This document shows positions 27,446 through 53,434 of a DNA stretch of 61,795 nt, piece by piece (within the stretch, counting starts at the first letter, position 1; each line of letters begins with the position of its first letter). This stretch comes from a virus (Duplodnaviria > Caudoviricetes): positions 1-61,795 of the IMG/VR virus record IMGVR_UViG_3300018481_000005. The stretch is one strand, 5' to 3'. The notes beneath the pieces were generated by a model. That model was not told the DNA's origin and did no database searches. It saw nothing but the letters and a program-made list of their open reading frames with translations. Position numbers and translations under genes: made by a program.

Positions 27446-27591
27446 TACGTGTCACAGATTGCGACAGGAGCTCATGTACGATGTGCGTCATCGGGGTCAT
27501 CGCCTGCGGCAGACCCGCCAGCGGCAAGCTCGTCCGGTTGCACCGACGAGAGTCCATGTTGGCAGAGGTGAGCAGAAGGAGGCGATCGTAA

Positions 27592-29216: not shown

Positions 29217-29228
29217 GAGGTGGAGTGA

Positions 29229-29612: not shown

Positions 29613-29613
29613 A

Positions 29614-30648: not shown

Positions 30649-30649
30649 C

Positions 30650-31051: not shown

Positions 31052-31054
31052 CAG

Positions 31055-31363
31055 ATGTTCGTTCAGTACGTAGGTCCGTCAGACGTCCGCACGATCACGG
31101 CGGATGACTGGAAGACAGTCGACGAAGGACGAGGTGGTCCCGTCGAGAACGACACGGTGACATGGGACGGTGACAACCTGTTCATCGCGGAAGTGACCGA
31201 TGCAGCCGGAGAATGGTTGGTCCGTTACGACCCGGAGTTCAAGGTTGCACCGCCAGCCGCAGTCGAGGATCAACTCGAGGAGGAAGCGGAAGAGATCCTC
31301 GAGGAAGAAGAAGCAGCGGCGGAGGATGCACCTGCGCCGAAGAAGACGTCGAAGAAGGCATGA
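31055..31363 (+). CDS. Hypothetical virion-module protein
   Basis: GAAGGAGG RBS; acidic then basic tail. Confidence 0.7.
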   Translation: MFVQYVGPSDVRTITADDWKTVDEGRGGPVENDTVTWDGDNLFIAEVTDAAGEWLVRYDPEFKVAPPAAVEDQLEEEAEEILEEEEAAAEDAPAPKKTSKKA

Positions 31364-31590
31364 TGGAACTACGTTGCGAGCACACCATGCACGGCATCGT
31401 CGAGGAGAACGTTCTCGAGGTCAAGTGCAAGAACAATCTGTGTGGCGCTCGCAGCGGAGTGATCGTGCTGCATCGCTTCGACATCACGACAGGAACGCTT
31501 CTGTCAACCAACAAGTACAAGGACCCCATGAAGAAGGAGGTGAAAGCTAGTGGCTCTCGCAACCAACTCGCTGCCGTTCGGACTGCGTGA
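31360..31590 (+). CDS. Small Cys/His zinc-binding protein
   Basis: ELRC...HG...EVKC...CG...LHRF. Confidence 0.65.
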   Translation: MMELRCEHTMHGIVEENVLEVKCKNNLCGARSGVIVLHRFDITTGTLLSTNKYKDPMKKEVKASGSRNQLAAVRTA

Positions 31591-32086
31591 CGTCAAGCTG
31601 CGTGCTCTCGACGCGCTCGGAGAAAGTCCTGGTGCATCGGTAGACCTGCCAGCAGGTCGCACGTTGACGTTCGCTGAAGCCGAGGACTTCGAGGAACTGC
31701 GCGGTGATGACATCGTCGTCGCTTCGCACGGAGCAGGTCCTTCGGTCGAGTGGAACTTGGAGTCGGGCGGCATCTCGCTCGATGCATACAAGTTGCTCGC
31801 AGGCGGAACGGTGACGACGTCAGGTGTCACGCCGAACCTGAAGAAGACCTATGCCAAGAAAGGCACGGACGCTCGTCCGTACGTGCAGATCGAGGGACAG
31901 GTCATCTCAGACAGCGGTGGTGACATGCACGCCGTCATCTACAAGGCGAAGGTGGACGGTTCGATCGGCGGAGAGTTCGCAGACGGTCAGTTCTGGTTGA
32001 CCGGAGCGGACGGACACGGATTCCCGAACGCTGCCGACAAGCTGTACGACTTCGTCCAGAACGAAACCGCAGTCGCCATCACGTAA
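31550..32086 (+). CDS. Major tail protein
   Basis: LPFGLRDVKL start; upstream of chaperones and tape measure; AAGGAGGTG RBS. Confidence 0.85.
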   Translation: MALATNSLPFGLRDVKLRALDALGESPGASVDLPAGRTLTFAEAEDFEELRGDDIVVASHGAGPSVEWNLESGGISLDAYKLLAGGTVTTSGVTPNLKKTYAKKGTDARPYVQIEGQVISDSGGDMHAVIYKAKVDGSIGGEFADGQFWLTGADGHGFPNAADKLYDFVQNETAVAIT

Positions 32087-32102
32087 GACAGAGGAGAACA
32101 CG

Positions 32103-32651
32103 ATGGAGCCCACTGAGGCCACAACCGCAAGCGAATGGAAGCGGGGACAAGGAAGACCCTGTCGCGTTCGCAGCGGCAACATCGCACTAGTCCGGCCCTT
32201 CGACCCAGCGGTGTTCCTGTCGTCGGGTCGCGTCCCCAACCTTCTACTCCCGATGCTCGAGGACATGCTCAAGCATCACGAAGGCGGAAAGCGAATCGAG
32301 GTTGACAGCATGGCTCGTGTCGAAGCGGCGATGGACCTGATCGACGCGGTCGTTGTGGAGTACACGGCAGAGCCACAGGTGTATCCCGTTCCGACGGGCT
32401 GTCAGCAGTGTCAACGAACGCTCGTTGAGCATGACGAACAGGATCATGATTTCGTACCGACACCGCGTGATCCCGACAAGCTGTACGTCGACCAGATCGA
32501 CATGGACGACAAGATCGACGTCTACGAGTTCGCGCTGTCGGAGGCTGCGCCGCTCATTCCGTTTCCTGAAGAACCTGAGGGAAGTGTGGACGCTGTACAA
32601 CGTGGCGAAGGAACTGTCGACACGACCGAGCGACCTGTTCGGAGTGCGTGA
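32103..32651 (+). CDS. Tail assembly chaperone (G)
   Basis: Between major tail and tape measure. Confidence 0.8.
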   Translation: MEPTEATTASEWKRGQGRPCRVRSGNIALVRPFDPAVFLSSGRVPNLLLPMLEDMLKHHEGGKRIEVDSMARVEAAMDLIDAVVVEYTAEPQVYPVPTGCQQCQRTLVEHDEQDHDFVPTPRDPDKLYVDQIDMDDKIDVYEFALSEAAPLIPFPEEPEGSVDAVQRGEGTVDTTERPVRSA

Positions 32652-32841
32652 TCCGTATGCTCGTTTCGTCTTCGATGAGTGCGTTGTCTTCGTCGGAGGA
32701 TACGTGTCGACCGAGTTGCAGAACGTCAAGGGCAAGAAGGAAGAACAACGTGCCGCTGCAAGGAAGAGACTGTTGATCCGACTACTTGACGGACCCGAGG
32801 CACCTGGTCAGTTCGCTGATCCGGCGCAGAAGAGGACCTGA
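32563..32841 (+). CDS. Tail assembly chaperone extension (T), probably reached by +1 frameshift
   Basis: Overlapping +1 frame FLKNLREVW...FADPAQKRT ending at the tape measure start; TTT-C at 32562-32565. Confidence 0.7.
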   Translation, partial: FLKNLREVWTLYNVAKELSTRPSDLFGVRDPYARFVFDECVVFVGGYVSTELQNVKGKKEEQRAAARKRLLIRLLDGPEAPGQFADPAQKRT

Positions 32842-35465
32842 TGGCTGACTACGATCTTGGTCGTGCAGAAGGACGCGTAGAGATCGACACGTCCGGCGTT
32901 CGCAAGGCGACCGCTGACATGAGCACGTTCAGCGGCACCATGTCGAAGTCGTTGCAGACGGTCGGAAGCAAGATGACGAGCGCTGGTCGCACGATGACCA
33001 CTCACGTCACGCTTCCGCTTCTCGGTATCGCAGCCGCAGGAATCAAGACAGCGAGCGACTTCGAGAAGTCCATGAACACCATGGCCGCTGTCGCACAGGT
33101 TCCCGCTGCAGAACTCGCGAAGTTGCGCAAGCTCGCGATCGATCTCGGTGCGAAGACTGTCTTCAGCGCGAACGAGGCGGCTCAGGCACAGCTTGAACTA
33201 GCGAAGGCAGGCATCAGCGTCTCCGACATCATGGGTGGCGCACTTGCCAACACGCTTGACCTTGCGACCGCTGGTGACCTAGACCTCGCGACGGCTGCGA
33301 CTGTCGCAGCGAATGCGATGAACGTGTTCGGTCTGTCAGGCAAGGAAAGCAAGGAAGCCGTTGACGCGCTGGCAGGTGCAGCGAACGCTTCGTCGGCTGA
33401 CGTTGACGACCTTGCACAAGCGCTCAGTCAGGGTGGTCTTGCAGCGGCGAACGCAGGCTTCAGCATCCAGGAGACGACAGCCATCCTCGGAGCGTTCGCG
33501 CAGAACGGACTGAGAGGGTCTGACGCAGGTACGTCATTGAAGACGATGCTGATCTCGTTGGTGCCAAGCACCGACAGAGCACGCGAGGCCATGAAGAAGT
33601 ATGGTCTCGACTTCATCGACGCACAGGGAGCGATCAAGGATGCTCCCGCTGTGTTCGACGAACTGCACGATAAGCTCGGCGACGTGTCACAGGCGGAACA
33701 GCAACTCGCACTGAAGACCATCTTCGGTACTGACGCGTTCCGTGCCGCTATCATCGCGACCAAGCTTGGTTCTGACGGGCTCGAGGTGTACACCGACGCG
33801 ACGAACAAGTCAGGCACCGCGTCAGAGGTTGCAGCGGGGAAGATGGAGGGACTGCCTGGTGTCCTTGAGCGACTGAAGGGAACCTTCGAAACGTTCCTGC
33901 TCACTGTCGGAGATCGCATCGCACCTGTTGTCGAACAACTCGCTGAGGAGATCGGCAAGCTGCTGACAGCGTTCACCGACCTACCGAAGCCGATGCAGGA
34001 GATGATCCTGAAGGCTCTCGCTGTCGCGGCAGTGATGGGTCCGTTGCTGCGCATCTTTGGTCCGATGGTGTCACTCGTTGGGAAGCTTGGCGGACTGTAC
34101 GGAGGACTCGCGACGAACCTTGGCAAGACAGCGTCTCAGGGTGCCGCTGCACAAGGCGCTCTTGGTTCGATGGCAGGAACGTTGAAGTCACTCGGCACAG
34201 GTGCATTGATCGCGGGAGGAACGATCCTCGCTGGTCAGTTCATCCGCAACGCCATTCAGGCTGCGAACTGGAGTCCGGAGGACGTCGCGAACAAGCTCGT
34301 GACACCGCAACAGGTCGAGCAGATCTCTGAGCAGTTGAACAGCAAGTTCGGACACCTGTCGCTGACCGAGATCAACCCGTTCAAGACACGCTTCGACATC
34401 ACTGGCGACGCCGTGAAGGTGTACGGCGAGACGCTGAAGGAAGCGGTCAAGGCAGGCATCCCGATGGAGGAAGCGCAGCGACGTCTGAACCTCGCATTCG
34501 ACGATCTCGTGCCGACGCTTGGTGGCGTCAACGGCAACATGGATACGTGGCGAGAGAACTTGCGTCAGTCGATCGGTCTGACCGTAGATGCTGATGGCGT
34601 GACACGCATCTACTCGCAGTCGCTGTTGGACACGTCACAGGCACAGGCAACGTTTGGTCAGATCGTCGGGTTCAGCGCCGAACAGAACACGAAGGCAGGG
34701 AACAAGCTCGCCGCTCTAGTCAACGGCTACACGAACATGGTCGGACCGATCGACTCAACGACAACGGCGATGCTCAACAACTTGGTTCAGATGGGTGACT
34801 ACCAAGCAGCGATCAAACTGCTCAACGATGAGCTGAACAAGAACACGCGTGGCATGCTTCACAACTTGGAAGTCACCAATCGTCATGCAGGTGCAGAGCG
34901 AGAAGCTGACGCGGCACAGCGACAGCGCGGTGCAAGCATGGCGGCGACGACCGAGCAGACGCAACGTGCAGGCGAAGAGACGAACGCTTACAAGCGTTAT
35001 CTCGACTCGCTCCCGAAGTCCGTCAGGACGCAGGTCATCGCGGAGACGGAAGCCGCACGGCGAGCGATCGAGCAGGTCGCGACATCACTCAATGGACTGC
35101 CGTCAACCAAGGTCATCAACATCCAGCTGAACCGTGAAGGATGGCCCGGTCGCGCATCGGGCGGTCCTGTGGAACGTGACGCTCCCTACATCATCGGTGA
35201 GCAGGGTCCAGAGTTGTTCATCCCGTGGACGTCAGGACGCGTGATCCCCAATCACGTCGTGCGTTCCGTGTCGCGTCAGACCGACCGAATGGAGCACATC
35301 GCTACGTCGCACAGCGGACAGGCTGTCGGGTCGTCCAAGGGGATGCGTATCTCAGGAACGTTGCAGACACCGTTCGGTCCGTCACACATCGACGGCATGA
35401 TCGAGGATGCGATCGGAGAGCATGAAGGGTTCAACCGACGACTGGCGAGGATGAAGCACTCATGA
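32841..35465 (+). CDS. Tape measure protein (TP901-like core)
   Basis: 874 aa helical Ala-rich; FSANEAAQA, GSDAGTSLK, IFGTDA, RASGG..IGEQGPELF. Confidence 0.95.
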   Translation: MADYDLGRAEGRVEIDTSGVRKATADMSTFSGTMSKSLQTVGSKMTSAGRTMTTHVTLPLLGIAAAGIKTASDFEKSMNTMAAVAQVPAAELAKLRKLAIDLGAKTVFSANEAAQAQLELAKAGISVSDIMGGALANTLDLATAGDLDLATAATVAANAMNVFGLSGKESKEAVDALAGAANASSADVDDLAQALSQGGLAAANAGFSIQETTAILGAFAQNGLRGSDAGTSLKTMLISLVPSTDRAREAMKKYGLDFIDAQGAIKDAPAVFDELHDKLGDVSQAEQQLALKTIFGTDAFRAAIIATKLGSDGLEVYTDATNKSGTASEVAAGKMEGLPGVLERLKGTFETFLLTVGDRIAPVVEQLAEEIGKLLTAFTDLPKPMQEMILKALAVAAVMGPLLRIFGPMVSLVGKLGGLYGGLATNLGKTASQGAAAQGALGSMAGTLKSLGTGALIAGGTILAGQFIRNAIQAANWSPEDVANKLVTPQQVEQISEQLNSKFGHLSLTEINPFKTRFDITGDAVKVYGETLKEAVKAGIPMEEAQRRLNLAFDDLVPTLGGVNGNMDTWRENLRQSIGLTVDADGVTRIYSQSLLDTSQAQATFGQIVGFSAEQNTKAGNKLAALVNGYTNMVGPIDSTTTAMLNNLVQMGDYQAAIKLLNDELNKNTRGMLHNLEVTNRHAGAEREADAAQRQRGASMAATTEQTQRAGEETNAYKRYLDSLPKSVRTQVIAETEAARRAIEQVATSLNGLPSTKVINIQLNREGWPGRASGGPVERDAPYIIGEQGPELFIPWTSGRVIPNHVVRSVSRQTDRMEHIATSHSGQAVGSSKGMRISGTLQTPFGPSHIDGMIEDAIGEHEGFNRRLARMKHS

Positions 35466-37831
35466 GTAACGTTTCCGCTGTCAAGGTACGTCTCGACACA
35501 TGGGCTGACGAAGCTGCACCGAATGTGAACAACGGTGAAGCGGCTCGCCTGCGGATCACTAACCTCGGAAGCAACCGTCGGTGGATATACCTGTTCGGTC
35601 CTCGCCCATTTCCCGTAGGCGCCACCGTAGTCAGCGCAACGCTCCGCCTGTTCGCAGGCAACGACTGGTCCGGTGGTCCGCACACGTTGACAGCCGACAG
35701 GATCAACCAAGCGTGGAAGGAAAGCGGACCCGGACACCTTGACTGGGCCGACCGACCGACGGTCGCAGGTGCATCGGCGACACGGGTCCTGTCTTCGAAC
35801 CCTGCCAACAAGGAAGCCGTCGACATCGACGTGACAACGATCCTGCAAGCCGCTGCGAACGGAAGCGCGTATCACGGCATCCGGCTTCAGATCGACACGA
35901 CGGGACAACGTTCGTTCTACAGCGCGGAGAACAAGGACTCGGATCTGACGCCACAGTTGATCGTGACGTGGGTCCTTGGTCCTGCACCGCCTTCCGACCT
36001 GTCACCAGCCGGTGACCTCTACGTCGGCACGTCGAAGCCTGCGATGACATGGGAGTTCGAGGACCAGGCGTCGTTCCAGTTTCAGCTTGATGACACAGCC
36101 GACCTGTCTTCACCTGTCTACGACAGCGGCGTCATCATGTCGTCGGAGTGGCAGATCGACCTGTCACGGCAGTTGATCCCGCTGCGCAACCAGACGGACG
36201 TGGAAGCAGCGCTCGGAGCGAACGAGATCGTTGCCATCCAGACCGCAGTGGTCGCACGGACAACGACAGCCGGAGAGTTCAACGAGGGAATCGCAGGTGT
36301 CAAGGCGACCGGACACGCGACCAACACGTTCTCCGGCTTGAACGTCGGTGCGTCAACTGGCTCAACCAACCTTCCGGCTGTCAGTCCGACCAAGCAGTAC
36401 GTCGCGTCGATGGACTTGAAGGGCATCAGCGGCACACCGACCGTCATGATCCGCTTGCGATGGACGGATGGTGCAGGAGCCGCGTTGTCGAACAGCGACT
36501 CGGCGTCGTTCGCTGTGACAGCGTCGTTCGCTCGGTACAACTTCAGCGCCATCGCACCTGCGTCAGCGGCGTTCGTCCGCGTGCAAGTGCTGTTCCCCGC
36601 TGCTGGCGCTGGTCAGATCTTCGTCGCTGACAGGTTCCTGTTCGAGGAAGGCGTCAATCCTGGCGCATGGTATCCGTCGTTCCAGCAGGTCGCGATCAGC
36701 GATGCTCAGCAGCGGTACTGGCGTGTCCGTGCGACGAACAACGATGGTGCGACGAGTGAGTGGTCCGACATCGCGTCGTTCTGGAAGATCAGCAAAGGTT
36801 CGCTCAGCATCACGAGTCCGACTGCACCGTTCGATGACACGTCGCCCGTCATCGTTCACTCGCTTGGTGGCGGCAGGACGCAAGCCGCTGTCCAGTACAT
36901 CGTCATCGACCCAACGAAGACCGCGTCAACCAACGACTTGTACAACGTGGTCTACAACAGCGGGAAGATCACGACGACGGCCACATCGTTCACACTGCCT
37001 GAGGGACTGTTCACCAAGACAGGTGTGACGTACAAGATCATCGTCCGCGTGTGGGACACGTACAACCGCGTCGCGACGTCAGGCGTCACGACCTACCTTG
37101 AGGTGACCCTGAGCAGCGCGTACGTCAAGAACGGCACGCCGACGGTCGTCAACACGTTGTCGCAGATCGCGACGAACGACCCTGGTGTGCTTCTTCAGTG
37201 GTCTCGGGCTGTACGACCTGACTACTTCGCTGTCACCGTTGACGGAGTCTACGTCGAGCAACGTCTCGATCCTGCGGTGCTTGAGACGTCTCCTGGCGGT
37301 AGCACCTACCGCTTCAAGCTGTGGACCATCCGTCCTGACGGAGCGAGTCACACGGTTGGTGTCGAAGCGGTGACGCTGTCGTCGGGCGAGTACATCAACA
37401 GCACAGGTGTCACCGTCAGCGTCACGAGCAGCACGAAGAACAAGTGGCTGGTCTGCGAGGGACTCGATCTCGCGACGGTCATCATCGGACCGACTGACCC
37501 TGACTTCGTGATCGGTGAAGACGGTGAAACGTTCTTCATCAAGGGTCGTCGCGCACCTGTACGCATCACCGACAGCATGCGTGGATACGAAGGCACCGTC
37601 GTTGGAGCGTTCGCCGACTACAAGAGCGTCACGGCTGAAGCATGGCGCAACATCTTCGAGTTGATCAAGGCTGACGAGAACCAGCATCCGCTGCGACTCA
37701 TCTGGCGCGACCAGAACATCGAGATCATCATGGGCGACGTTGACGGTCCGTCACCGCAGAAGGCAGGATGGATCGACGTCGGCTTCGCGTTCTGGCAGAC
37801 AGACGACTACACCTTCAAGGTCAAGAACTGA
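35462..37831 (+). CDS. Minor tail protein (distal-tail-like with inserted carbohydrate-binding/FN3-like domains)
   Basis: Follows tape measure; YWRVRA...SEWS FN3-like motif. Confidence 0.8.
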   Translation: MSNVSAVKVRLDTWADEAAPNVNNGEAARLRITNLGSNRRWIYLFGPRPFPVGATVVSATLRLFAGNDWSGGPHTLTADRINQAWKESGPGHLDWADRPTVAGASATRVLSSNPANKEAVDIDVTTILQAAANGSAYHGIRLQIDTTGQRSFYSAENKDSDLTPQLIVTWVLGPAPPSDLSPAGDLYVGTSKPAMTWEFEDQASFQFQLDDTADLSSPVYDSGVIMSSEWQIDLSRQLIPLRNQTDVEAALGANEIVAIQTAVVARTTTAGEFNEGIAGVKATGHATNTFSGLNVGASTGSTNLPAVSPTKQYVASMDLKGISGTPTVMIRLRWTDGAGAALSNSDSASFAVTASFARYNFSAIAPASAAFVRVQVLFPAAGAGQIFVADRFLFEEGVNPGAWYPSFQQVAISDAQQRYWRVRATNNDGATSEWSDIASFWKISKGSLSITSPTAPFDDTSPVIVHSLGGGRTQAAVQYIVIDPTKTASTNDLYNVVYNSGKITTTATSFTLPEGLFTKTGVTYKIIVRVWDTYNRVATSGVTTYLEVTLSSAYVKNGTPTVVNTLSQIATNDPGVLLQWSRAVRPDYFAVTVDGVYVEQRLDPAVLETSPGGSTYRFKLWTIRPDGASHTVGVEAVTLSSGEYINSTGVTVSVTSSTKNKWLVCEGLDLATVIIGPTDPDFVIGEDGETFFIKGRRAPVRITDSMRGYEGTVVGAFADYKSVTAEAWRNIFELIKADENQHPLRLIWRDQNIEIIMGDVDGPSPQKAGWIDVGFAFWQTDDYTFKVKN

Positions 37832-39009
37832 TGCAGAAGCTAGGGATGAACAAGCGCGACTTCGACCTGTACCTTGCAGGACTCGCGCAGTCGCATATGG
37901 TCAGGACACGTGTCACGGTGTTGAACAAGAACGAGGATGAGATCGCAGAGCTCACGACCGACACGAGAACGTTCGTCCTCGGTGGTGAAGTGCAGGTCGA
38001 CCAGACAGCCGACGTGTCGCGGTCGTTGTCGCTTGAACTCCTTGACCCGCATGGGCTGGCAGAGTTCGATCCGAACACTCCGTCAAGCACGTCTCTCTTC
38101 ATGGACCGCTTCTTGAAGGTGCATCGCGAGGACTACATCTACGCGCTTGACAACTGGGTCGCTGCACCTATCTTCCACGGTCCGATCACGAAGCTTGAGC
38201 AGGACGGTGTCAACATCAGTGTCGAAGCGATGGGCAAGGAACATCTCCTGCAAGAGCCGCACCTGTACTGGCGGACGCGCACGTTCCGCAAGGGGACACG
38301 TCTGACCAAGGTGATCCGCACGTTGCTTGAAGACAAGGGTGAAGAGAAGATCGACCTTCCGAACCGCGACGAGACACTGAAGAAGCCGATCACTGTCATC
38401 GGGACCGACGTGCCGTGGAAGGTCATCGTCCGGATGGCAGGGATGCTCAACTGTTTCGCGTTCTACGACGGCGACGGCTTCTTCCGCTTGCGACCGAAGG
38501 CGAAGAACCCGTCGTACACCTTCACGGACGGAGAGGAAGGTGTGATCCTGACACCACCGAAGGAGCCGTTCGACTTCACAGGTGTACGGAACCTCATCCA
38601 AGTGCGCGGTCCGAAGCCTGACCAGAAGGACGCCAAACGTTTGGTCGTCACGAAGAAGCTGAACCCGGAAGCAGGTCTGTCAGCGCAGTCGCTCAGTCGC
38701 AACGGCAAGCCGCGATACATGGTGACGGTCGTTGAGGTTGATCCGCTGAAGGAACGCAAGAAGGGCGAACGCATGGCGACCGACCTACTCACTGGGCTGT
38801 CACGGCTCGGGACGGAGATGGAGTTTGAGTCGTTGGTCATCCCCGTGCTTGACGAGGGAGACATCTGCCGTGTTGACAGCGAGAACACGACCACCAACTT
38901 CGGCTTGAAGAAGATGACCGTTCCCGTAGGTGCAGCCGACAGCATGAGCATCGGCTTCAATAAGAAGACCCGCGTACGACGTATCCGACGGAGGCGACCG
39001 AACCGATGA
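37831..39009 (+). CDS. Minor tail protein (baseplate hub/Tal-like)
   Basis: Position; FYDGDGFFRLRP; TGATG overlap. Confidence 0.8.
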   Translation: MQKLGMNKRDFDLYLAGLAQSHMVRTRVTVLNKNEDEIAELTTDTRTFVLGGEVQVDQTADVSRSLSLELLDPHGLAEFDPNTPSSTSLFMDRFLKVHREDYIYALDNWVAAPIFHGPITKLEQDGVNISVEAMGKEHLLQEPHLYWRTRTFRKGTRLTKVIRTLLEDKGEEKIDLPNRDETLKKPITVIGTDVPWKVIVRMAGMLNCFAFYDGDGFFRLRPKAKNPSYTFTDGEEGVILTPPKEPFDFTGVRNLIQVRGPKPDQKDAKRLVVTKKLNPEAGLSAQSLSRNGKPRYMVTVVEVDPLKERKKGERMATDLLTGLSRLGTEMEFESLVIPVLDEGDICRVDSENTTTNFGLKKMTVPVGAADSMSIGFNKKTRVRRIRRRRPNR

Positions 39010-41798
39010 CGACACAGGTCCTAGGTCAGGTCCGTTCGGTCTCTGACCAGACGGCAGGCAGTGAGCTGAGCGCTGACGCAGCGATCGGTCAGACGTTGAC
39101 CGTGGAAGACCTCGAGTGGGTGAGCGAAAGCGGTGGTTCACTACTAGTAGGCACCGACGCACGCACCTACGACGCGGTCAGCTTCGTGGCCAACACCGTT
39201 CACCTGACGGTCGCCACGTCTCAGATCTGGCCGACAGGTACAAGGGTCGAGCCGAACCCGACGTCGATCAACCGCTACATGGAAGTGTGGACCGAGTCGG
39301 AAGACTACGAGGATGACCCTGAAGCGTTGACGGCACGTGTGCCAAACGTGTTCCGTGACCGCATGCCGATCGGGACACGTGAAGCCGACGCAGGTGAGTA
39401 CGTCATCGTTCAGCGCGAAGGCGATGTGGAAGGCGAGTGGGTCTTCATCGACTTCCCTGGCGAGTCGCTGGCGGTTGACCTGTCGGGTGCGATCGACCCT
39501 GACAGCCCACCGATCAGTGACGGCGTGCCTCCTACCACTTCACCGGCTGCAAGCGTTGTCGGTGCTATCGGCGCCATCGTCGTCACGTGGCCCGCTGTCG
39601 CGAACCATGACAGCATCGAGTACGAGGTTCACATCAGTACGTCTCCGGCGTTCGTGCCGACGCCTGGTGACGCGGCAACACTTGCAGCGACACAAGCAGG
39701 TGCAGGACCAGCGTGGATCCGCAAGCTTCCGAACGGCAATCCGCTTGAGTATGGGACCTTGTACTACGTGCGTCTCATCTCACGTGACCAGGACGGCACC
39801 GCGTCGGCAGGAGCCGTGGCCTCGGCGACACCTGTACAGGCAACGACAGGCGACATCGCCGTTGACGCGATCACGGCTGACCAGATCCTCGCACGCAGCA
39901 TCACCGCGCAGAAGCTACTCTCCGAGTTCGTCTTGGCCAACACCTTCTACGGAGGCGACCCGCTCAATCAGCACGTCGAGATGGACGCGAACGGCATCCG
40001 CCTGCTCGCTGCCGACGGCACTCCGATGGTCGACCTACCTACTGACCCTGCCAAGGACGCGGTGTTCAGCGGTGAAGTGATCGCACGTGCCATCACGGTG
40101 ATCGAAGCCGCAACGATCCGAGGGACGCTGACCCTTGACCGAGGCGCTTCCATGCGGTTCTCGAGCAGCATCGTCGACCCTGTCAGTCAGCCGACCGTGT
40201 CGGTGACGCGCGACAGCATGGACTACTTGAAGCACTCGACTTCTTACAACCTGATCAAGCGGCAAGGCTTCTGGTACGACGCGAGCGGTTCCGGTTCGCA
40301 GCCGACCGTCTTCTATACCGACCAGTACTTCTTTGGTGGACTCTATCTGAACTACATCGTGGAAGCGAAGCAGTCTGACGGCACGGTCGTTCGCAGCAAG
40401 CTCATGGGGTCAGGGACGAACGCTACCTTCCTCGGTACGGTGAACGGTGTCGTACGTGTTGGTTCGATCGTCTACGTGCTGTCGCGGGACACCGTCGGCA
40501 CCTACATCAGTCGTTGGAACCAGAGTGACCTGTCTGCCGCAGGTGGCAACGTCACGGTCAGCTCACACCTAGGAGACGAAGAGTTCCCGTCCCTGGCCTA
40601 CGACGGCACGAACCTGCTCGTCATCGACAGCGACAACGGTGGCTTCGACACACTTGTCTTGAAGTACACGGCTGCGAACCCTCCCGCCTACGTCAGCACG
40701 ACCACCATCAGTGGCATGGACTGGGGCAACGGTGGCATGGCGGTCGCCGAGAGCAAGTGGTGGTTCGGAGGTAACGTCTACGGCAGTAGTCAGACGGCTG
40801 GCGAGGACATGATCAAGCGCACGTCGACGGCAGGTGTTCGCGGTACATCGGATGATGACTTCGAAGCCGTCGCCGGAACAGGTGATTGCATCGGCCATGA
40901 CGGCAGTGTCTTCATCGTAGGCAGTCGCACGTCGACGAAGGTGTACAAGCACACCAACTGGACGTGGACGCCGTCGCAGTCAAGCAAGCTCTGGGTCGCC
41001 TATTCATGGTACGACCAGAACGCGACAGGAGGAACGCACGAGACCGCAGTCGGACCGCGTGCAAGTCTGACGATGGCGAAGCGAGCGAAGCTTGCTATCT
41101 CGACGCCAAGCATCCCTGGAGCCGGAGGAACGGATGACCCGAACCGCGTCCGCATCTATGCCAACTGGGGTACGTCGGAACCGACAGGCGGCAGTCCGAC
41201 ACGGTTCGCTGGCTTCCTTCAAGTTGAAGACGCGCTGACGACGCGGACCGTGTCCACCATCGACCTGACAGGATCACCTCCTGAGAACATCGGGGCGAAC
41301 TCCTTCTCCGCTGGAGGGAACGAGTCCTCCTTGCAGTCCGACACAGGTGTCCCGCTCCTGCGATCAAACGGCATCCCTCGTGTCAAGGTGAAGAATGGTG
41401 GTGGTGTCTCTGTTACGGACAACAACGCCACCGTCATCCCTCCCGCGTCTGAGGACGCTGACACGGACGGCTTCTGGGACGGGTCCGCCAACTACATCAT
41501 CATCCCGTACGCCGGACAGTACGAGGTTCTCTGTCAGCTCTCGTTCGCGGTCAGCAACTCCAATCGTCGGACTTGCACCTTGCAGTCTGCTCCGTCGCCA
41601 TACACGACATGGTCGGATCTCGGTGCTGACTTCTTCGCAGCCGCAGCCGCTGTCGGCACGGACAGGACGACGTGTCTTGTCGCCGCGATGCTTGACCAAG
41701 TCGCTGGTCAAGGCATCCGTGTCCGCGCTTACCAGAACAGCGGTGGCACTCTCAACACGACGATGCGTCTGACGCTGCTCTTCGCCGGACCGACCTAG
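39006..41798 (+). CDS. Tail tip/fibre (receptor-binding) protein
   Basis: 930 aa; FN3-like region, AITADQI/SITAQKL repeats, C-terminal C1q-like beta domain. Confidence 0.8.
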   Translation: MTTQVLGQVRSVSDQTAGSELSADAAIGQTLTVEDLEWVSESGGSLLVGTDARTYDAVSFVANTVHLTVATSQIWPTGTRVEPNPTSINRYMEVWTESEDYEDDPEALTARVPNVFRDRMPIGTREADAGEYVIVQREGDVEGEWVFIDFPGESLAVDLSGAIDPDSPPISDGVPPTTSPAASVVGAIGAIVVTWPAVANHDSIEYEVHISTSPAFVPTPGDAATLAATQAGAGPAWIRKLPNGNPLEYGTLYYVRLISRDQDGTASAGAVASATPVQATTGDIAVDAITADQILARSITAQKLLSEFVLANTFYGGDPLNQHVEMDANGIRLLAADGTPMVDLPTDPAKDAVFSGEVIARAITVIEAATIRGTLTLDRGASMRFSSSIVDPVSQPTVSVTRDSMDYLKHSTSYNLIKRQGFWYDASGSGSQPTVFYTDQYFFGGLYLNYIVEAKQSDGTVVRSKLMGSGTNATFLGTVNGVVRVGSIVYVLSRDTVGTYISRWNQSDLSAAGGNVTVSSHLGDEEFPSLAYDGTNLLVIDSDNGGFDTLVLKYTAANPPAYVSTTTISGMDWGNGGMAVAESKWWFGGNVYGSSQTAGEDMIKRTSTAGVRGTSDDDFEAVAGTGDCIGHDGSVFIVGSRTSTKVYKHTNWTWTPSQSSKLWVAYSWYDQNATGGTHETAVGPRASLTMAKRAKLAISTPSIPGAGGTDDPNRVRIYANWGTSEPTGGSPTRFAGFLQVEDALTTRTVSTIDLTGSPPENIGANSFSAGGNESSLQSDTGVPLLRSNGIPRVKVKNGGGVSVTDNNATVIPPASEDADTDGFWDGSANYIIIPYAGQYEVLCQLSFAVSNSNRRTCTLQSAPSPYTTWSDLGADFFAAAAAVGTDRTTCLVAAMLDQVAGQGIRVRAYQNSGGTLNTTMRLTLLFAGPT

Positions 41799-41885
41799 CC
41801 GGTGACGCCAGACTTGGGCTGCAAGTTCCCAAACCCACCTTCGGCCATGCCCAGCGGTAGGGACTCGCTACCTGCGCCAATCGCT

Positions 41886-41909
41886 TAGGGACCACGACAA
41901 AGGTCCCTA
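41886..41909 (+). terminator. Stem-loop at the end of the structural operon
   Basis: TAGGGACC / GGTCCCTA perfect 8-bp stem among several adjacent hairpins (41814-41953). Confidence 0.5.
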
Positions 41910-41946
41910 GCACCCACAGGGGATCGATCTTTCTTCCCTAAAGGCG

Positions 41947-41975
41947 TTGTGGGTTGGGGCCGACACCTGTACTGT
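41947..41975 (+). promoter_or_regulatory. SigA-like promoter (probable early promoter)
   Basis: TTGTGG-N17-TACTGT followed directly by a hairpin at 41982-42005. Confidence 0.55.
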
Positions 41976-41980
41976 TCTTC

Positions 41981-42480
41981 GTGTACCGCTTGCTAGTGCG
42001 GTACAGGCAAGGTCTCGGCGCAGCCGCTCGGCAGGCGCGGGAGGTGCAAGGGCTCAGTCCCTGGCAGCCCGCCCGTCAGCCCGAACTCGGTGAGCCCGGT
42101 AGGCGGCACACGGCGAAGCCATAGCAAGCATCGTCGGAGCGCGGGTCCACAGGACGCGCTTGGTGCCGCGAGCAGGTTGTCGTCGATCGATCATCCGATG
42201 ACTCCCCGCCTTGTAGCGACATCGACACCAACATCAGACGCGTCAGCGACGGTCTTGCGGGTCGGGTCAAGCGTGACACCAAGTGTTCATCCGATTGCTC
42301 ACCGGACAGGGAGCAACAGGCACCGCTGGCGGCATGCAGGTAGCACCTCCGACGACCGGACACATGATCGGTCAAGGTGCATCTAGACGGTTCATCAGGA
42401 AGTCACCCTGGGAAGAGACATCAATCTTCCCGGCGGTGATGGCGGCATGTACAAGCGTGCCGCCTTCATCGCTGTCGACA
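41981..42480 (+). ncRNA. Candidate large structured non-coding RNA or leader of about 500 nt; family not recognised
   Basis: Longest gene-free stretch; upstream promoter; at least six stems, several with G-U pairs. Confidence 0.45.
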
Positions 42481-42499
42481 CCAACGAGAGGAGGTCAAC

Positions 42500-42640
42500 A
42501 TGGTTGGCATGTTCGTAGATCACTACCTGTACGAAGACCGCATGGCGTGCGAGGATCTGCTCGCACTCTACGATCGTCAGCCCGAACTGCGCGACGAAGA
42601 CGCTGCGTTGTTCGAGTCTGGCGCAGCGGGGATCGGCTAG
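42500..42640 (+). CDS. Small acidic protein (absent from ORF track)
   Basis: GAGAGGAGGT RBS; MVGMFVDHYLYED... Confidence 0.65.
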   Translation: MVGMFVDHYLYEDRMACEDLLALYDRQPELRDEDAALFESGAAGIG

Positions 42641-42686
42641 TGCAAGACAGTCCGTCGTACCAACACTGCTACAAGGAGGAAGTCAC

Positions 42687-42821
42687 ATGCTCTACATCGT
42701 CACCTTCGTTCGTGATGGCAAGCACGAGCGTCATGAGCTTTCGTTCGCCCAAGCACGTACCCTCTCTGGCTACCTGCTTCACACCTTCGGCATCGTCGCT
42801 GACGTGGAGCGTGCTGCGTGA
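42687..42821 (+). CDS. Small protein (absent from ORF track)
   Basis: AAGGAGG RBS plus AGTCAC motif; MLYIVTFVRDGK... Confidence 0.7.
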   Translation: MLYIVTFVRDGKHERHELSFAQARTLSGYLLHTFGIVADVERAA

Positions 42822-42911
42822 CGCACCTAGTTCACCGACACGCCCACTGGTTCACCGTCCTCCTAGTAGAGGTCGGCCGCATTCTTGGCGCAGGGTACTG
42901 AAGGAGACAGC

Positions 42912-43148
42912 ATGAACATCACGAAGGTTGACACCGATCGCTACGCCGTCATCGCTGACAACGGTGAAGTCGTAGGCGAGATCCGCAAGACAACCGCTAG
43001 CGTCGGGCAGTCCACGACAAGCGGTCGCGTCCAAGTCAATCAGCGCACCGTCACTCGGTGGCGCGTCGTTGGCGATCCGTACCACTACCCGTTCACGACC
43101 CGCATGGCAGCGGCTCGCGACATCATGAAGAAGGTGCATGCCGCATGA
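42912..43148 (+). CDS. Hypothetical early protein
   Basis: GAAGGAG RBS. Confidence 0.7.
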   Translation: MNITKVDTDRYAVIADNGEVVGEIRKTTASVGQSTTSGRVQVNQRTVTRWRVVGDPYHYPFTTRMAAARDIMKKVHAA

Positions 43149-43321
43149 ACAACAACATCGAAGCACTTCGGGCAGTCATCAAGCGGTTCGGACTCAAGGT
43201 GCAAGACAAGACGGTGCAGCGCATCGTCGGTCAGTACGCGCTTGGCATCCTGACACAGCACGACGCGGAGACAGCGCTCGTGCAGTTGTCGACAGGCAAG
43301 TTCAGCCGCGTCATCCGCTGA
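43145..43321 (+). CDS. Hypothetical early protein
   Basis: ATGA overlap. Confidence 0.6.
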   Translation: MNNNIEALRAVIKRFGLKVQDKTVQRIVGQYALGILTQHDAETALVQLSTGKFSRVIR

Positions 43322-43350
43322 CGGTCGTTGGAGAGAGCGACCGCAGTCAC

Positions 43351-43381
43351 ACGTTCCACAACCCGAAAGGACAGTCACATG
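43351..43381 (+). promoter_or_regulatory. Start-associated motif ACGTWCCA...AAGG...GTCAC...ATG (representative copy)
   Basis: Copies at 42655 (variant), 43351, 43615, 43956, 44291, 47992 and 49656. Confidence 0.75.
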
Positions 43382-43600
43382 AGCACCAACATCTACTCGC
43401 TCGACATCTACGACGACTTCAGCACGGAGCCGCAGTGGCGCCTCGACTTCACCACGGTCGAGAAGGCTGAAGCTGCACAGCACATGCTCGAGACCGATGA
43501 GGGTCTGCAAGGCATCTCATGGACGCGCATCAGCATGCGTCCGCTTGACGACAAGGCGGTTGACGAGTTCTACGCCGCCATGGCTGCACTGAACGCCTGA
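43379..43600 (+). CDS. Hypothetical early protein
   Basis: GAAAGGA RBS plus motif. Confidence 0.7.
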   Translation: MSTNIYSLDIYDDFSTEPQWRLDFTTVEKAEAAQHMLETDEGLQGISWTRISMRPLDDKAVDEFYAAMAALNA

Positions 43601-43644
43601 CACACACCTGTTCAACGTTCCACAACCTAGAAGGAGTCACAGAC

Positions 43645-43944
43645 ATGAAGACGTTCGCCGCATTCGCAGAGGTCAACTTCGCCGACGGCACCACCTTCGC
43701 CTTCAGCCGTACAGGGGTCAACGCCGAAGACGCAGCCGCTCGGCTCGGCATGGCTGTCGCACATCACGACAACATCTTCAACCACAACGGCATGAAGGTG
43801 TGGCCGGAGATCCTCGTCAACGAGCTTGACGCAGGTGCCGACCCCACCGACTTCCACTTCATCCAGGAGCGGGAGGAGCGCACCGCCGACGTCGAGGAGA
43901 TGTTCCAAGCGGAACAGCAAGCCGCACGGTTCCGCAACGTCTGA
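43645..43944 (+). CDS. Hypothetical early protein
   Basis: GAAGGAG RBS plus motif. Confidence 0.75.
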   Translation: MKTFAAFAEVNFADGTTFAFSRTGVNAEDAAARLGMAVAHHDNIFNHNGMKVWPEILVNELDAGADPTDFHFIQEREERTADVEEMFQAEQQAARFRNV

Positions 43945-43985
43945 TCGTTCGTCACACGTACCACCGACCGAAAGGGAGTCACATC

Positions 43986-44270
43986 ATGCAGGACTACATC
44001 ATCACCTTGGACGGCGCAGGCACGGCCAACTGGCCGCCACGCATCGTTCGTGCAGAGAGCGAAGTCGACGCCATCCGTGCGATGAAGCTTGACACGCCTG
44101 ACATCTGCGGCAAGCTTCGCAAGCTTCCCAACCAGAGCAAGTTCCGCGACGCCGACTACCGCACGTTCTCGGTCGGCATCTACAAGGACTACCCGAAGAG
44201 TCGGTACAACCGTGTCCGTGCGATCCGGCTGCACCGCGACGGCTACTTCGTGAGCAACCTGTACGTCTGA
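43986..44270 (+). CDS. Hypothetical early protein
   Basis: GAAAGGGAG RBS plus motif. Confidence 0.75.
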   Translation: MQDYIITLDGAGTANWPPRIVRAESEVDAIRAMKLDTPDICGKLRKLPNQSKFRDADYRTFSVGIYKDYPKSRYNRVRAIRLHRDGYFVSNLYV

Positions 44271-44321
44271 TCGTTCATCGTCCACGCAGTACGTACCACC
44301 TACCGAAAGGAAGTCACAGTC

Positions 44322-45008
44322 ATGCCGAACATCAACTGCACCGAGGTCAACCACCTGGGCGACCCTTGCCGCATGAAGTTCAACCGCTACGTCGGCAAGC
44401 ACTCCACGCCTATGTGCAAGCGTCACGCTGACAAGTTCGACGCCGACACGCAGCGGTACATGAAGCTGCTCGTCGTGTCGCACGAAGAAGGCAATCACGT
44501 CAACGACGACAAGTCCGAAGGCATCGTCGACGAGGACGGTCGCCTTCTGTTCTGCAGCGCGTGCCGTCTCGAAGCTGAGAAGCGCGAGTGGCTGGAGCGC
44601 GTTGGTGACGTTGCGCTTGACGACCTGTGGAACGCCAAGGACATCTGGGAGCGTTGCACGAAGATCGTCAAGAAGGATGCCGCTGCACGTACCAAGTTCG
44701 CAGCGGACGTCGTCAACAATCCGTTCTACGCGATCGAGTGGTCGGAAGGGTTCGTCGAGCAGGTGCAGATCGCTGTGTATGCACAGCGCGTCCTGGACCG
44801 TGTCGGCAAGGAGCTTCCGACCCGCTACGGACAAGAGCCTGTCATCGGCACGTGGAACATCATCACGGCCATGCAGGCAGTGCGCGAAGAGGCGACCAAC
44901 GAGATCATGGGGACGCTGAGTCTGAGCAGCGGGCTGTTCCACCGTGACGTCGCCATCGCCAAGCAGTCGGGTGCGAAGAAGTTCGTCACGAGCACCTACT
45001 GGAGCTGA
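44322..45008 (+). CDS. Hypothetical early protein
   Basis: GAAAGGA RBS plus motif; N-terminal Cys/His cluster. Confidence 0.75.
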   Translation: MPNINCTEVNHLGDPCRMKFNRYVGKHSTPMCKRHADKFDADTQRYMKLLVVSHEEGNHVNDDKSEGIVDEDGRLLFCSACRLEAEKREWLERVGDVALDDLWNAKDIWERCTKIVKKDAAARTKFAADVVNNPFYAIEWSEGFVEQVQIAVYAQRVLDRVGKELPTRYGQEPVIGTWNIITAMQAVREEATNEIMGTLSLSSGLFHRDVAIAKQSGAKKFVTSTYWS

Positions 45009-45009
45009 C

Positions 45010-45174
45010 ATGCTCTGCGCATGCGGCAGAGCAGCGACACGGAAGCTGTTCGTTGGCGACCATGTACAAGGCGATCCGAAGTGCAACCGATGCACGGACC
45101 GAGCAGCGTTCGCGACGTTGATGCGTGAGCGTCGCGTCGTTGCCGTTCCGATGAAAGGAAAGTCACATGCCTGA
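45010..45174 (+). CDS. Small zinc-finger-like protein
   Basis: CACG...CNRC. Confidence 0.55.
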   Translation: MLCACGRAATRKLFVGDHVQGDPKCNRCTDRAAFATLMRERRVVAVPMKGKSHA

Positions 45175-46087
45175 CAAGGACACGATCCTAGAGCGCGTTC
45201 GCAAGCTGCTGGACAAGGCAGACAGCACGACGTTCGAGGAAGAAGCAGCCACGTACCGCGAGAAGGCTGACGCTCTGATGCTTCAGTACGCCATCGAGTC
45301 GTTCGAAGTTGACGCGGCTCGCAAGGAAGGAAGCAAGGAGCGCGAGTCGATCGTGCTTCACAAGTTCGTCATCTGCAAGAGCGACAACCCTGTCAAGGAT
45401 CAACTCGTCAACCTTGCAGGCATCGTCGCCAGCCACGTGCGGTGTCGGTCGGTGTTCTACGGCATGTCGACATCGCCCAAGTGGAAGATGGACGTGAGCA
45501 TCGGTGTCGTCGGCTACGAGAGCGACGTCAAGTACGCGGAGATGCTCTTCACGTCACTCTGGCTGCAACTGTCGGCGAACCTGGAGCCCAAGCCCGATCC
45601 CGAGCTTGATGACGTTGACAACTTCGTACACATGCTCGAGAACGGTGTGTCGCGCAAGCGGATCGCCGAGCTGATGGGCATGCCTGCGAAGGAGTCGTCG
45701 TATCAGCGCATCAGCAAGGCGTACATCGCGTGGTGCAAGGAGAACGACAAGGTGTATCACGGTCGCAACACTCGGCCGCTCCCTGTCACCTATGCTCGGA
45801 ACTACGCATCGGCGTTCACGTCGCGCATCGGTACGCGTCTCTACGAGATCCGCAAGCGTCAGCAGGAGCAGGTGGAGTCAACGGGTAAGGGCATCGTCCT
45901 GTTCGACCGGAACAAGCTCGTGTCGGATGCATACAACGAGATGTTCCCGCCGAAGTCGCTGTCAACGCACCGCGAACGTTCCACCGCCAAGTTCAACGCA
46001 GCGGCACAGGAGCGCGGTCGGGAAGCAGGCAACCGCGCAGACCTCGGTCAGAAGCGCATGGCGAACGACAAGAAGGAGTTGGGCTGA
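45167..46087 (+). CDS. DUF2786-domain protein
   Basis: ILERVRKLLDKA.ST..EEA...KA..LM..Y.I N-terminal signature. Confidence 0.8.
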   Translation: MPDKDTILERVRKLLDKADSTTFEEEAATYREKADALMLQYAIESFEVDAARKEGSKERESIVLHKFVICKSDNPVKDQLVNLAGIVASHVRCRSVFYGMSTSPKWKMDVSIGVVGYESDVKYAEMLFTSLWLQLSANLEPKPDPELDDVDNFVHMLENGVSRKRIAELMGMPAKESSYQRISKAYIAWCKENDKVYHGRNTRPLPVTYARNYASAFTSRIGTRLYEIRKRQQEQVESTGKGIVLFDRNKLVSDAYNEMFPPKSLSTHRERSTAKFNAAAQERGREAGNRADLGQKRMANDKKELG

Positions 46088-52317: not shown

Positions 52318-52472
52318 TGCCTGACGTGCAACTGTGCGAGTGGTTCGCTATGTGCGCGAACCCTGCGGACGGCATGATGCCGCATCCGATCCTCGGTGGT
52401 GTGCCGTGCTGTGAAAGGTGCGCAGCCGTTGTCGGTGCAGAGTCGGAGCTAGTGAAAGGAACGTTCGAGTGA
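52317..52472 (+). CDS. Small Cys-rich protein (absent from ORF track)
   Basis: CEWFAMCANPA...HPILG.VPCCERC; AAAGGAGG RBS. Confidence 0.65.
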   Translation: MPDVQLCEWFAMCANPADGMMPHPILGGVPCCERCAAVVGAESELVKGTFE

Positions 52473-52717
52473 CGAAGCGTCACATTGAAGTCCTCATGCT
52501 CAAAGCGTTGGGCTTGTCCAGCCGTCAGGTCGGGCAGATCCTATGGCTGTCTGAGAAGACGGTCAAGGCGCATCTGCAGTACCTGTCGGCACGACTCGAC
52601 GCACGCAACACCACGCACGCTGTCACCATCGCACTGACACGTAACCACTTCACCCTTGCGGACCTTCAGGTCCTTGAGGAAGAGATCAGCGAGCGACTCC
52701 GAGAGGAGGCATCATGA
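52469..52717 (+). CDS. LuxR/GerE-type HTH regulator
   Basis: TKRHIEVL...GLSSRQVG..LWLSEKTVKAHL......L.ARNTTHAV. Confidence 0.85.
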   Translation: MTKRHIEVLMLKALGLSSRQVGQILWLSEKTVKAHLQYLSARLDARNTTHAVTIALTRNHFTLADLQVLEEEISERLREEAS

Positions 52718-53243: not shown

Positions 53244-53266
53244 CGTGTCTATGCGAAGCCCGCGCA

Positions 53267-53414
53267 CGTGTGTACGGGTTCAACGGCTAGGGTGGACTAG
53301 GGACTAAGACGGACAGCGTCAGTCCCTTCCTACCCTTCCGTTCTGTGCGTCGTCCTGTGAGGACTACAATCAGCAGCGGATCGTAGCCGTTGAACCCGTA
53401 CAGCCGCGTACGCG
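53267..53414. repeat. Inverted-repeat element, copy 2 (candidate replication origin or structured RNA)
   Basis: Perfect 19-bp IR TGTACGGGTTCAACGGCTA 53271-53289 / TAGCCGTTGAACCCGTACA 53384-53402; CGCGTACGCG at 53405-53414. Confidence 0.85.
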
Positions 53415-53434
53415 AGGGAAACGAAGGAGGCAGT

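Follow-up and report, generated by a model that had tools for sequence, protein, structure and literature searches.

Genomic context of the gap

The window, meaning the whole stretch of DNA analysed in this study, is a complete virus record (G000) of 61,795 nt. Its 123-nt identical ends fall within the primase/helicase gene, which indicates an assembly overlap of a circular map. Our own gene calling, based on open reading frames and codon scores, placed 97 of 99 genes on the + strand; the remaining two are short and low-scoring. The capsid protein shares at most about 46% identity with the capsids of Microbacterium, Gordonia and Mycobacterium phages, and every one of the 162 records matched in the capsid search fell below 60% identity. 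The phage thus appears to be an uncultured actinobacteriophage-like siphovirus. The gene order around the region of interest, with functions from PHROG matches, is as follows.

22087 to 41798: terminase (22087), portal, capsid, tail, tape measure and tail proteins
39006-41798: last tail gene, adjoining the gap on its 5' side
41799-42499: non-coding gap of 701 nt that separates the last tail gene from the first small gene
42488-42496, + strand: Shine-Dalgarno sequence GAGAGGAGG, a strong ribosome-binding site, with the start codon at 42500
42500-42640, + strand: first small gene (gene call, 46 aa), with the Shine-Dalgarno sequence just upstream
From 42500, + strand: small-gene block (PHROG matches and gene order)
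After the small-gene block: helicase, thymidylate synthase, exonuclease, Sak4-like protein, primase/helicase and large DNA polymerase
After the large DNA polymerase: further small genes, then the terminase (22087)

The replication genes lie 7-20 kb downstream of the gap. Judging from the gene order, the genes downstream of the gap are presumably early.

Coding potential of the gap

The initial annotation described the region as the longest gene-free stretch, and the gap 41799-42499 (701 nt) is indeed the longest between our gene calls. No frame within it has a positive codon score. Open reading frames of 98-99 aa are present on both strands, and a Pfam search with two of them (~98 aa) gave no match. 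For comparison, metagenome contigs were scanned with the C-terminal 265 aa of the tail protein, which yielded a single relative, L054 (1,922 nt). The end of the L054 tail protein is 48% identical to that of the window, and the contig aligns from about 20 nt before the tail stop codon through the whole gap into the next two genes. Within the gap, nine indel events separate the two sequences, each 1-2 nt long, and the open reading frames of the window and L054 differ in frame and product. This indicates that the stretch is not protein-coding; neither a conserved frame nor the codon usage of the genome, as a protein-coding gene would have, was found in the gap.

The repeat TCGACACCAAC was said to occur twice, at 42222 and 42475, and both copies are present. 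A third copy lies on the - strand at 37355, and the repeat is mildly enriched. It was given no weight, since neither gap copy is intact in L054.

Upstream sequence and promoter-like motif

Three features precede the structured part of the gap.

41858-41909, + strand: cluster of three TAGGGAC motifs, three of the four copies in the window
41886-41909, + strand: perfect hairpin formed from two TAGGGAC motifs, with 8-nt arms and an 8-nt loop
41947-41975, + strand: promoter-like motif TTGTGG-17 nt-TACTGT, which implies an RNA 5' end near 41981-41984

The TAGGGAC cluster may mark where the tail operon ends, or may bind a protein. A SigA-like promoter had been claimed immediately ahead of the structured stretch, and this claim holds in part. 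The motif exists and fits a relaxed actinobacterial-type pattern (TTGNNN-N16-18-TANNNT), which has five + strand matches in 61.8 kb. Two of these five are intergenic vs 0.3 expected from the share of length, and the motif is one of the two; both of its hexamers are identical in L054. However, the motif fails a strict sigma-70 scan for the E. coli-type consensus, which found no site in 41000-43500. The onset of structure matches the start that the motif predicts: 41799-41985 folds no better than shuffled sequence (z -0.62), and the first hairpin begins at 41982. An RNA would therefore be expected to start near 41981, from the putative promoter at 41947-41975. The scan of 41000-43500 found no terminator-like sites.

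Folding energy

The six stems listed in the initial annotation, which had pointed to their density, are all found in the sequence at the positions given, and all six belong to the two-sequence consensus fold described below. Compared with dinucleotide shuffles, the 500-nt stretch reaches z -3.46 on the + strand, where one of 100 shuffles folds as well, and z -2.76 on the - strand. The 3' half (42231-42480) accounts for the strongest signal, with z -4.26 on the + strand and -2.55 on the - strand. As a control, 52 windows of 250 nt from 1-13000 had a mean z of -0.04 (sd 1.04, minimum -3.35), and the + strand value of 42231-42480 lies beyond all of them. For the 5' half (41981-42230), the folding energy is no better than that of shuffles (z -1.1), so that support for structure there comes from covariation and not from thermodynamics.

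Compensatory changes between the window and L054

Identity between the window and L054 varies sharply along the region.

41782-41980: 98.0% identical
42006-42135: 71.0% identical
42136-42169: 97.1% identical
42170-42338: 60.5% identical
42339-42499: 92.5% identical
42500-42735: 234 of 236 positions identical

The alignment comprises two full sequences (n=2, the window and L054), too few for a statistic of the R-scape type, and the consensus fold (RNAalifold) was fitted to the same two sequences in which changes were then counted. This fold has 155 pairs in 20 helices. Both bases differ in 19 of the 155 pairs, located in 11 helices, and these still pair; 11 more are changed on one side and still pair, and none is broken. 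When the 3' partners were slid by 1-3 columns, 0-2 double-changed pairs were counted, with 38-45% of cells paired. Shuffling the 3' letters gave 9.6±2.1 double-changed pairs (0/500 reached 19), and shuffling columns within conservation classes, followed by refolding, gave 6.8±2.6 (maximum 14; 0/100 reached 19). The consensus energy is -203.4 kcal/mol vs -134.3±7.2 kcal/mol in the column shuffles, a contrast that is inflated because the column shuffle loses dinucleotides.

A less circular test used the minimum free energy (MFE) fold of the window alone, on whose pairs the substitutions of L054 were scored. L054 changes touch 49 pairs of this fold, and 26 of them still pair; among the 19 pairs changed on both sides, 13 stay paired. 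Permutations that swapped L054 letters among columns with the same window base, globally or in blocks of 30, 50 or 80 columns, left 3.0-4.3±1.6-1.9 double-changed pairs paired, and none of 5000 reached 13. The number of broken pairs was 23, vs 39-45 expected. The reciprocal test, with the fold of L054 alone, kept 15 of 19 double-changed pairs. Since 23 of the 49 touched pairs of the window-only fold break in L054, the details of any single fold, above all its long-range pairs, are unreliable. At the local level the agreement is good: when 42170-42215, 42216-42270 and 42268-42340 were folded separately, the same hairpin shapes were obtained from the window and L054 out of largely different letters.

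These results bear on the reading of the region as a decayed or unrecognised coding sequence, or as a chance run of functionless GC-rich hairpins. The open reading frames of 98-99 aa on both strands would suit the former; hairpins are common in DNA of 60% G+C, and the weak folding of the 5' half (z -1.1) would suit the latter. However, the short indels, the lack of conservation of the frames in L054 and the negative codon scores argue against coding, and the double-changed pairs stay paired well beyond every control, which argues against chance. Both versions of this reading are very improbable.

Helix architecture

The consensus fold is essentially a row of local hairpins, all on the + strand.

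41982-41989/41998-42005, + strand: H1, perfect hairpin of 8 bp, which would sit at the 5' end of the RNA
42014-42099, + strand: Domain A, long irregular hairpin (consensus helices 3-5)
42103-42169, + strand: Domain B, three-way junction with closing stem 42103-42109/42163-42169
42111-42136 and 42137-42161, + strand: the two arms of Domain B
42138-42143/42155-42160, + strand: stem AGCGCG/CGCGCT in the Domain B arm 42137-42161
42172-42209, + strand: H4, hairpin with three double-changed pairs
42222-42265, + strand: H5, hairpin whose apical stem has 4 bp and whose loop has 3 nt; two double-changed pairs
42271-42337, + strand: H6, long hairpin with apical stem 42295-42303/42309-42316; four double-changed pairs
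42338-42384, + strand: H7, hairpin with inner stem 42354-42359/42368-42373
42343-42348/42375-42380, + strand: outer stem of H7, GCACCT/AGGTGC
42386-42404, + strand: H8
42408-42416/42425-42433, + strand: stem of eight Watson-Crick pairs and one U.G
42410-42431, + strand: H9
42432-42473, + strand: H10, about 18 bp, ending 26 nt before the start codon
42441-42448/42457-42464, + strand: stem of seven Watson-Crick pairs and one U.G

H1 carries one single-sided change in L054 (U-A to U.G). Six double-changed pairs are kept in Domain A, the apical stem of which is replaced by another sequence in L054, and three occur in Domain B. The arm 42137-42161 of Domain B is held within a 34-nt island (42136-42169) that is identical to L054 at 33 of 34 positions and is surrounded by sequence of 60-71% identity. 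In H4 the sequence is almost wholly different in L054, and the hairpin is retained in place. The apical stem of H6 includes TTGCTC/GAGCAA (42295-42300/42311-42316), where one C-G pair becomes U-A, and the inner stem of H7 shows a change from G-C to C-G and another from G.U to G-C. Hairpins H8-H10 (42386-42473) form the thermodynamically strongest part; there, L054 and the contigs of two public runs show solely single-sided changes from G-C to G.U.

The sole long-range helix of the consensus joins 41975-41980 to the Shine-Dalgarno sequence. It is not relied on, since these bases lie upstream of the proposed start and other folds differ. Sequestration of the Shine-Dalgarno sequence was considered and rejected: every fold predicts it to be paired, yet the partner varies among three stretches (41975-41980, 42200-42214 and 42503-42514), and a partner that differs between folds makes no case for translational control.

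Search for known families and further homologs

A search with Infernal, which the initial annotation had proposed, identified no family: with 4227 Rfam models at E up to 10 over 41000-43500, the sole match was a chance miRNA on the - strand (16.8 bits vs a gathering score of 96; E 3.6). At the gathering score, Rfam 15, whose families include ROOL, GOLLD, OLE, riboswitches and pRNA, gave no match in the whole window or in L054. Signatures of tmRNA, RNase P or an intron had not been recognised from the sequence; Rfam likewise returned none, and ARAGORN found no tRNA or tmRNA gene in the whole window. A blastn search of the gap and of 38500-46000 against 50,697 phage records gave no match.

Relatives found by the capsid protein in IMG/VR include four complete records, G001-G004. 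The nearest complete relative is G001 (capsid 66% and polymerase 63% identical, broad synteny). It has a gap of 926 nt at the same place, between small genes that follow the tail gene and a homolog of the window's 44-aa gene. This gap opens with four or five copies of CGTTGCGNNGCAAGG and contains strongly folding parts (z down to -4.2); no similarity to the window's gap was detectable by sequence or covariance model. The records G002-G004 and Microbacterium phage Ajin show no comparable gap after their tail genes. When viral contigs were searched with the tail-fibre protein, the 228-aa early protein and an alignment of the 44-aa early protein, no relative besides G001 was found.

Searches for the element itself gave a similar picture. 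The hairpin pattern of the gap occurs at 17 loci in viral contigs, none of which matches 39000-45999 of the window by blastn or tblastx, and two patterns built on the conserved islands hit no locus there. A 23-mer match in genome contigs (L056) was discarded: it has no blastn match to the window at E 1e-5, and in our own reading it appears to match by chance within a bacterial MAG's gene for a membrane protein. Covariance models of two parts, R1 (42009-42173) and R2 (42333-42480), were run over 25 sources including G001-G004. They returned self matches and otherwise just weak - strand matches of R2 (window E 0.00088, L054 E 0.044), which overlap the palindromic 3' hairpins and extend into the first gene. 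In the sequences covered, the element thus appears in one narrow lineage. The template of a diversity-generating retroelement was also considered and rejected, since no reverse-transcriptase family appeared in the PHROG scan; no direct repeats linking the gap to the end of the tail gene were found in the largest 20 of at least 60 repeat families.

Strand preference

The consensus energy is -203.4 kcal/mol on the + strand vs -169.7 kcal/mol on the - strand. In 80 column shuffles this difference was 1.6±7.3 kcal/mol (minimum -15.5; 0/80 as low as the observed -33.7 kcal/mol). Single-sided changes that keep the pair, mostly through G.U, make up 13 of 30 on the + strand and 8 of 34 on the - strand. 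The - strand keeps 12 of 15 double-changed pairs, as Watson-Crick compensation is strand-symmetric; energy and G.U pairs are therefore what decides the strand. On these measures, an RNA with the same reading direction as the genes is favoured over DNA palindromes.

The same data serve to weigh a control region acting at the level of DNA, with operators, a replication origin or a packaging or recombination site, in which the palindromes would bind protein and the RNA fold would be incidental. Such a region would suit the position of the gap at an operon boundary, the clustered TAGGGAC motifs upstream and the CGTTGCGNNGCAAGG copies at the syntenic place in G001, and the strand symmetry of compensation is also consistent with it. 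Against this, no shuffle was as asymmetric as the consensus fold, many of the kept pairs are G.U, and the helices are long, bulged and imperfect, compared with the short symmetric form of operators. In addition, no iterons and no AT-rich stretch were found from 41981 onward. We regard a DNA-level role as quite unlikely.

The initial annotation had offered a new structured non-coding RNA as its reading. The stretch is non-coding and belongs to no Rfam family, its helices are kept by compensatory changes beyond those of all controls (n=2 sequences), and the + strand is preferred. The gap of this phage therefore has a conserved secondary structure with a preference for the + strand, and it matches no described RNA family.

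Natural variants in public runs

Fifteen of the 16 public runs listed (13 studies) contain part of the stretch, and none is on record as RNA. Contigs of four runs were compared, three from soil and one from sediment, and all four have contigs on the gap; no molecule ends are seen in them. In run X1, one contig (41898-42164) shows the same changes as L054, so that the L054 allele is confirmed by other data, from a sample that may not be independent. A second contig of this run (42139-42471) is window-like; both alleles, or recombinants of them, co-occur in X1. An apparent 170-nt skip in an X1 contig (42168>42339) was considered as a deletion, but is best read as an L054-like allele too diverged to align.

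Several further changes fall on the proposed helices. The variant 42182 G>A occurs in contigs of all four runs; it turns a G.U pair into A-U in the window's own 7-bp stem of H4, and, in the 4-bp register of the consensus, would disrupt the pair that closes the loop of the same hairpin. The variants 42187 T>G and 42188 C>T lie in the loop of H4, and 42240 G>A lies on a bulge. Among the variants listed, these four are absent from L054, and three are shared with it: the C>T changes at 42464 and 42472, each of which makes a G.U pair out of G-C in H10, and the loss of 1 nt at 42482, within a loop.

This patchwork of alleles is relevant to another reading, namely a stand-alone RNA with its end at H10 that would work in trans, on the host or a host defence, with its sub-domains as exchangeable alleles. 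The long stem of H10 and its position shortly before the start codon would suit such an end, and exchange of sub-domains would suit both a middle part that is 60-71% identical between phages with 98-99% identical flanks and the L054-like and window-like contigs of run X1. A precedent is found in mycobacteriophage L5: according to the portion of PMC5712189 available, about 90% of the transcripts from the early promoter Pleft end after ~500 nt, and this RNA is abundant, stable and toxic to the host. However, no U-tract follows H10 and the scan revealed no terminator-like site, and recombination between diverged phages could by itself account for the patchy identity. A stand-alone RNA is therefore considered unlikely.

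Discussion

In this study, the gap between the tail genes and the small-gene block of an actinobacteriophage-like genome was found to hold a conserved structured element. The interpretation that we favour, and consider fairly probable, is a structured leader on the + strand of the rightward gene block, possibly also processed into a stable RNA. The RNA would be about 500 nt long, from about 41981 to about 42480 on the + strand, with ten to eleven hairpin domains in a row. Starting from the promoter-like motif (41947-41975), transcription would proceed rightward, the direction shared by the phage genes, so that the RNA would form the long 5' leader of the small-gene block from 42500. The analogy with mycobacteriophage L5 suggests that a portion of it probably builds up in stable, processed form as well. 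Protection of the transcript may come from the hairpin at its very 5' end and from the compact 3' hairpins, which may also set how much transcription and translation reach the first genes. Transcription itself, the early timing of the genes downstream and the effects on stability, termination or translation are predictions of this model.

The size and multi-hairpin build would also suit a structured pre-primer or origin transcript. ColE1 RNA II is a folded pre-primer RNA and serves as the model here; by analogy, the phage transcript would prime or activate replication. The phage encodes its own primase/helicase and polymerase, which is in keeping with such a role. However, neither origin features nor a predicted antisense partner could be found, and the distance of 7-20 kb to the replication genes downstream also speaks against it. 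Among the readings considered, this is the least probable.

The pattern of variation may have a further meaning. One speculative and rather improbable proposal is that the RNA is a modular specificity determinant, in which 42006-42135 and 42170-42338 are alleles that reassort at invariant islands, between phages sharing 98-99% identity elsewhere, while every hairpin is preserved. If this were true, the pattern would fit diversifying selection on an RNA that keeps its fold and changes its sequence, for example one that counters a sequence-specific host defence as a decoy or antidote, or one that gives antisense immunity between competing phages. Independent of this proposal, the natural variation points to selection on the fold rather than on the sequence, and it provides a helix-by-helix model for probing and mutation. 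R1 and R2 could seed a new RNA family given more homologs. The class as a whole would become easier to study if structured leaders recur across unrelated actinophages, and if the allele-like swapping of sub-domains reflects selection and not plain mosaicism.

Comparison with known systems

Large structured RNAs are known from phages. ROOL and GOLLD, which are often found in phages or prophages, and the pRNA of phi29 resemble the element described here as phage-borne structured RNAs of several hundred nucleotides. Unlike them, the element has no Rfam match and consists of a row of local hairpins, with a long-range core unsupported. The antitermination RNAs of lambdoid phages (nut, and put of HK022) act in cis and lie in the leader just downstream of early promoters. 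They are short, with one or two hairpins, whereas the element here is about 500 nt long and no downstream terminators were found. RNAs of this type modify RNA polymerase so that it passes terminators further on. An antitermination-type leader was the alternative that the initial annotation had named, and the scan of 41000-43500, with no terminator-like site, speaks neither for nor against it.

Actinobacteriophages are known for very abundant non-coding RNAs at the heads of early operons, the role of which is unknown. In Rhodococcus phage WC1, three highly transcribed intergenic non-coding regions, nc_1 to nc_3, are described in the available part of PMC10986025. The window's element is like these in its actinophage setting, its intergenic location and its position at a gene-block boundary; nc_2 lies in the middle of the WC1 genome, and WC1 is temperate. 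This likeness is one of description, drawn from that part of the source, which reports neither structure nor covariation for the three regions.

The closest counterpart is the RNA downstream of Pleft. As far as the accessible text of PMC5712189 describes it, phages L5, D29 and StarStuff carry a ~500-nt non-coding RNA directly downstream of this early promoter, which is abundant from 15-30 minutes and is processed into species of 100-400 nt; its function is unknown. Folding of the L5 stretch from that paper gave z -4.23, comparable with -3.46 for the window's element. Going by this description, the two share an actinophage setting, a length of about 500 nt and the lack of a conserved open reading frame, with abundant 1-2-nt indels between close relatives. 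The window's element would also resemble the L5 RNA in its place, directly after a putative early promoter and ahead of small genes that are presumably early. In contrast, blastn found no match between them, and the models R1 and R2 scored E 6.2 and E 1.6 on L5 50300-52297; homology to the Pleft RNA of cluster A mycobacteriophages was thus found neither in sequence nor in structure. In the same description, the L5 RNA lies at the genome's far right end and is read leftward, whereas the element here has the tail genes on one side and a co-directional gene block on the other. The source reports expression, stability and toxicity for the L5 RNA; the window's element is known from its DNA sequence. 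It is therefore at most analogous in kind to the Pleft RNA and not a member of its family. In sum, the element fits best among the early-leader RNAs of actinophages, as a new structured and lineage-restricted case from an uncultured soil phage, and would represent an independent, unrelated example beside the Pleft RNA of the mycobacteriophages.

Putative structured elements in intergenic regions

Folding into RNA structure was also predicted in two intergenic gaps other than the one at 41799-42499 that holds the proposed structured RNA. These gaps carry the two copies of a paralogous element:

Window 9715-9885, about 170 nt: paralogous element, copy 1
Window 53255-53425, about 170 nt: paralogous element, copy 2

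The arms GTGTACGGGTTCAACGG ... CCGTTGAACCCGT are conserved between the 9.7-kb and 53.3-kb copies and form a long basal stem that encloses a variable interior. When folded as RNA, the 53.3-kb copy showed a z of -7.81 and the 9.7-kb copy a z of -2.07. An Rfam search found no match for either element. With these paralogues, the phage may have another type of structured element, or of regulatory site, in addition to the proposed RNA.

The nearest complete relative, the IMG/VR record G001, has a gap in the syntenic position:

G001 42326-43251 (L026 2326-3251, - strand), 926 nt: gap syntenic to the window's gap

The two gaps are not alignable. On the basis of a single ORF call with a weak score, the gene-poor stretch of G001 may extend to about 1,370 nt. 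Parts within the G001 gap fold strongly, with z down to -4.2, and four to five copies of CGTTGCGNNGCAAGG lie at its beginning; these copies resemble an array of protein-binding sites. In the window, the short motif TAGGGAC occurs four times genome-wide. Three copies fall within 52 nt (41858-41909) directly downstream of the tail-gene stop, and two of these three pair as a perfect hairpin whose arms are each 8 nt long around a loop of 8 nt. The remaining copy lies inside the 53.3-kb repeat element.

The end of the tail gene also marks a homology break with L054, a 1,922-nt metagenome contig from a close relative. Over its C-terminal portion (window 41001-41798 vs L054 92-922), the last tail protein shares only 48% identity, whereas the DNA downstream of the gene is 98-99% identical, and the break lies about 20 nt upstream of the stop codon. 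From this sequence comparison, a tail-fibre (host-range) module looks to have been swapped at a conserved boundary.

Other genome features

Besides the match at 41947-41975, the relaxed promoter pattern TTGNNN-N16-18-TANNNT has a sole intergenic + strand match, at 11717-11746. Situated 77 nt upstream of the gene that starts at 11824, this match is a candidate for a second host-type promoter. The 82-aa product of 52469-52717 weakly matched (E 4.4e-6) a PHROG family that carries a sigma factor annotation; should the match be real, the phage may use a factor of its own to shift transcription towards its late genes.

The record's ends, 1-123 and 61673-61795, are identical over 123 nt. Because both lie within the primase/helicase gene, the recorded "direct terminal repeat" does not correspond to a physical repeat at the genome ends; it is an overlap from the assembly of a circular or permuted map.

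Directly after the head-morphogenesis (MuF-like) gene, the gene at 25862-26533 matched, with E 1.2e-17, a PHROG family whose annotation is ADP-ribosyltransferase exoenzyme toxin. In phages, ADP-ribosyltransferase toxin domains are common neighbours of MuF, or are fused with it.
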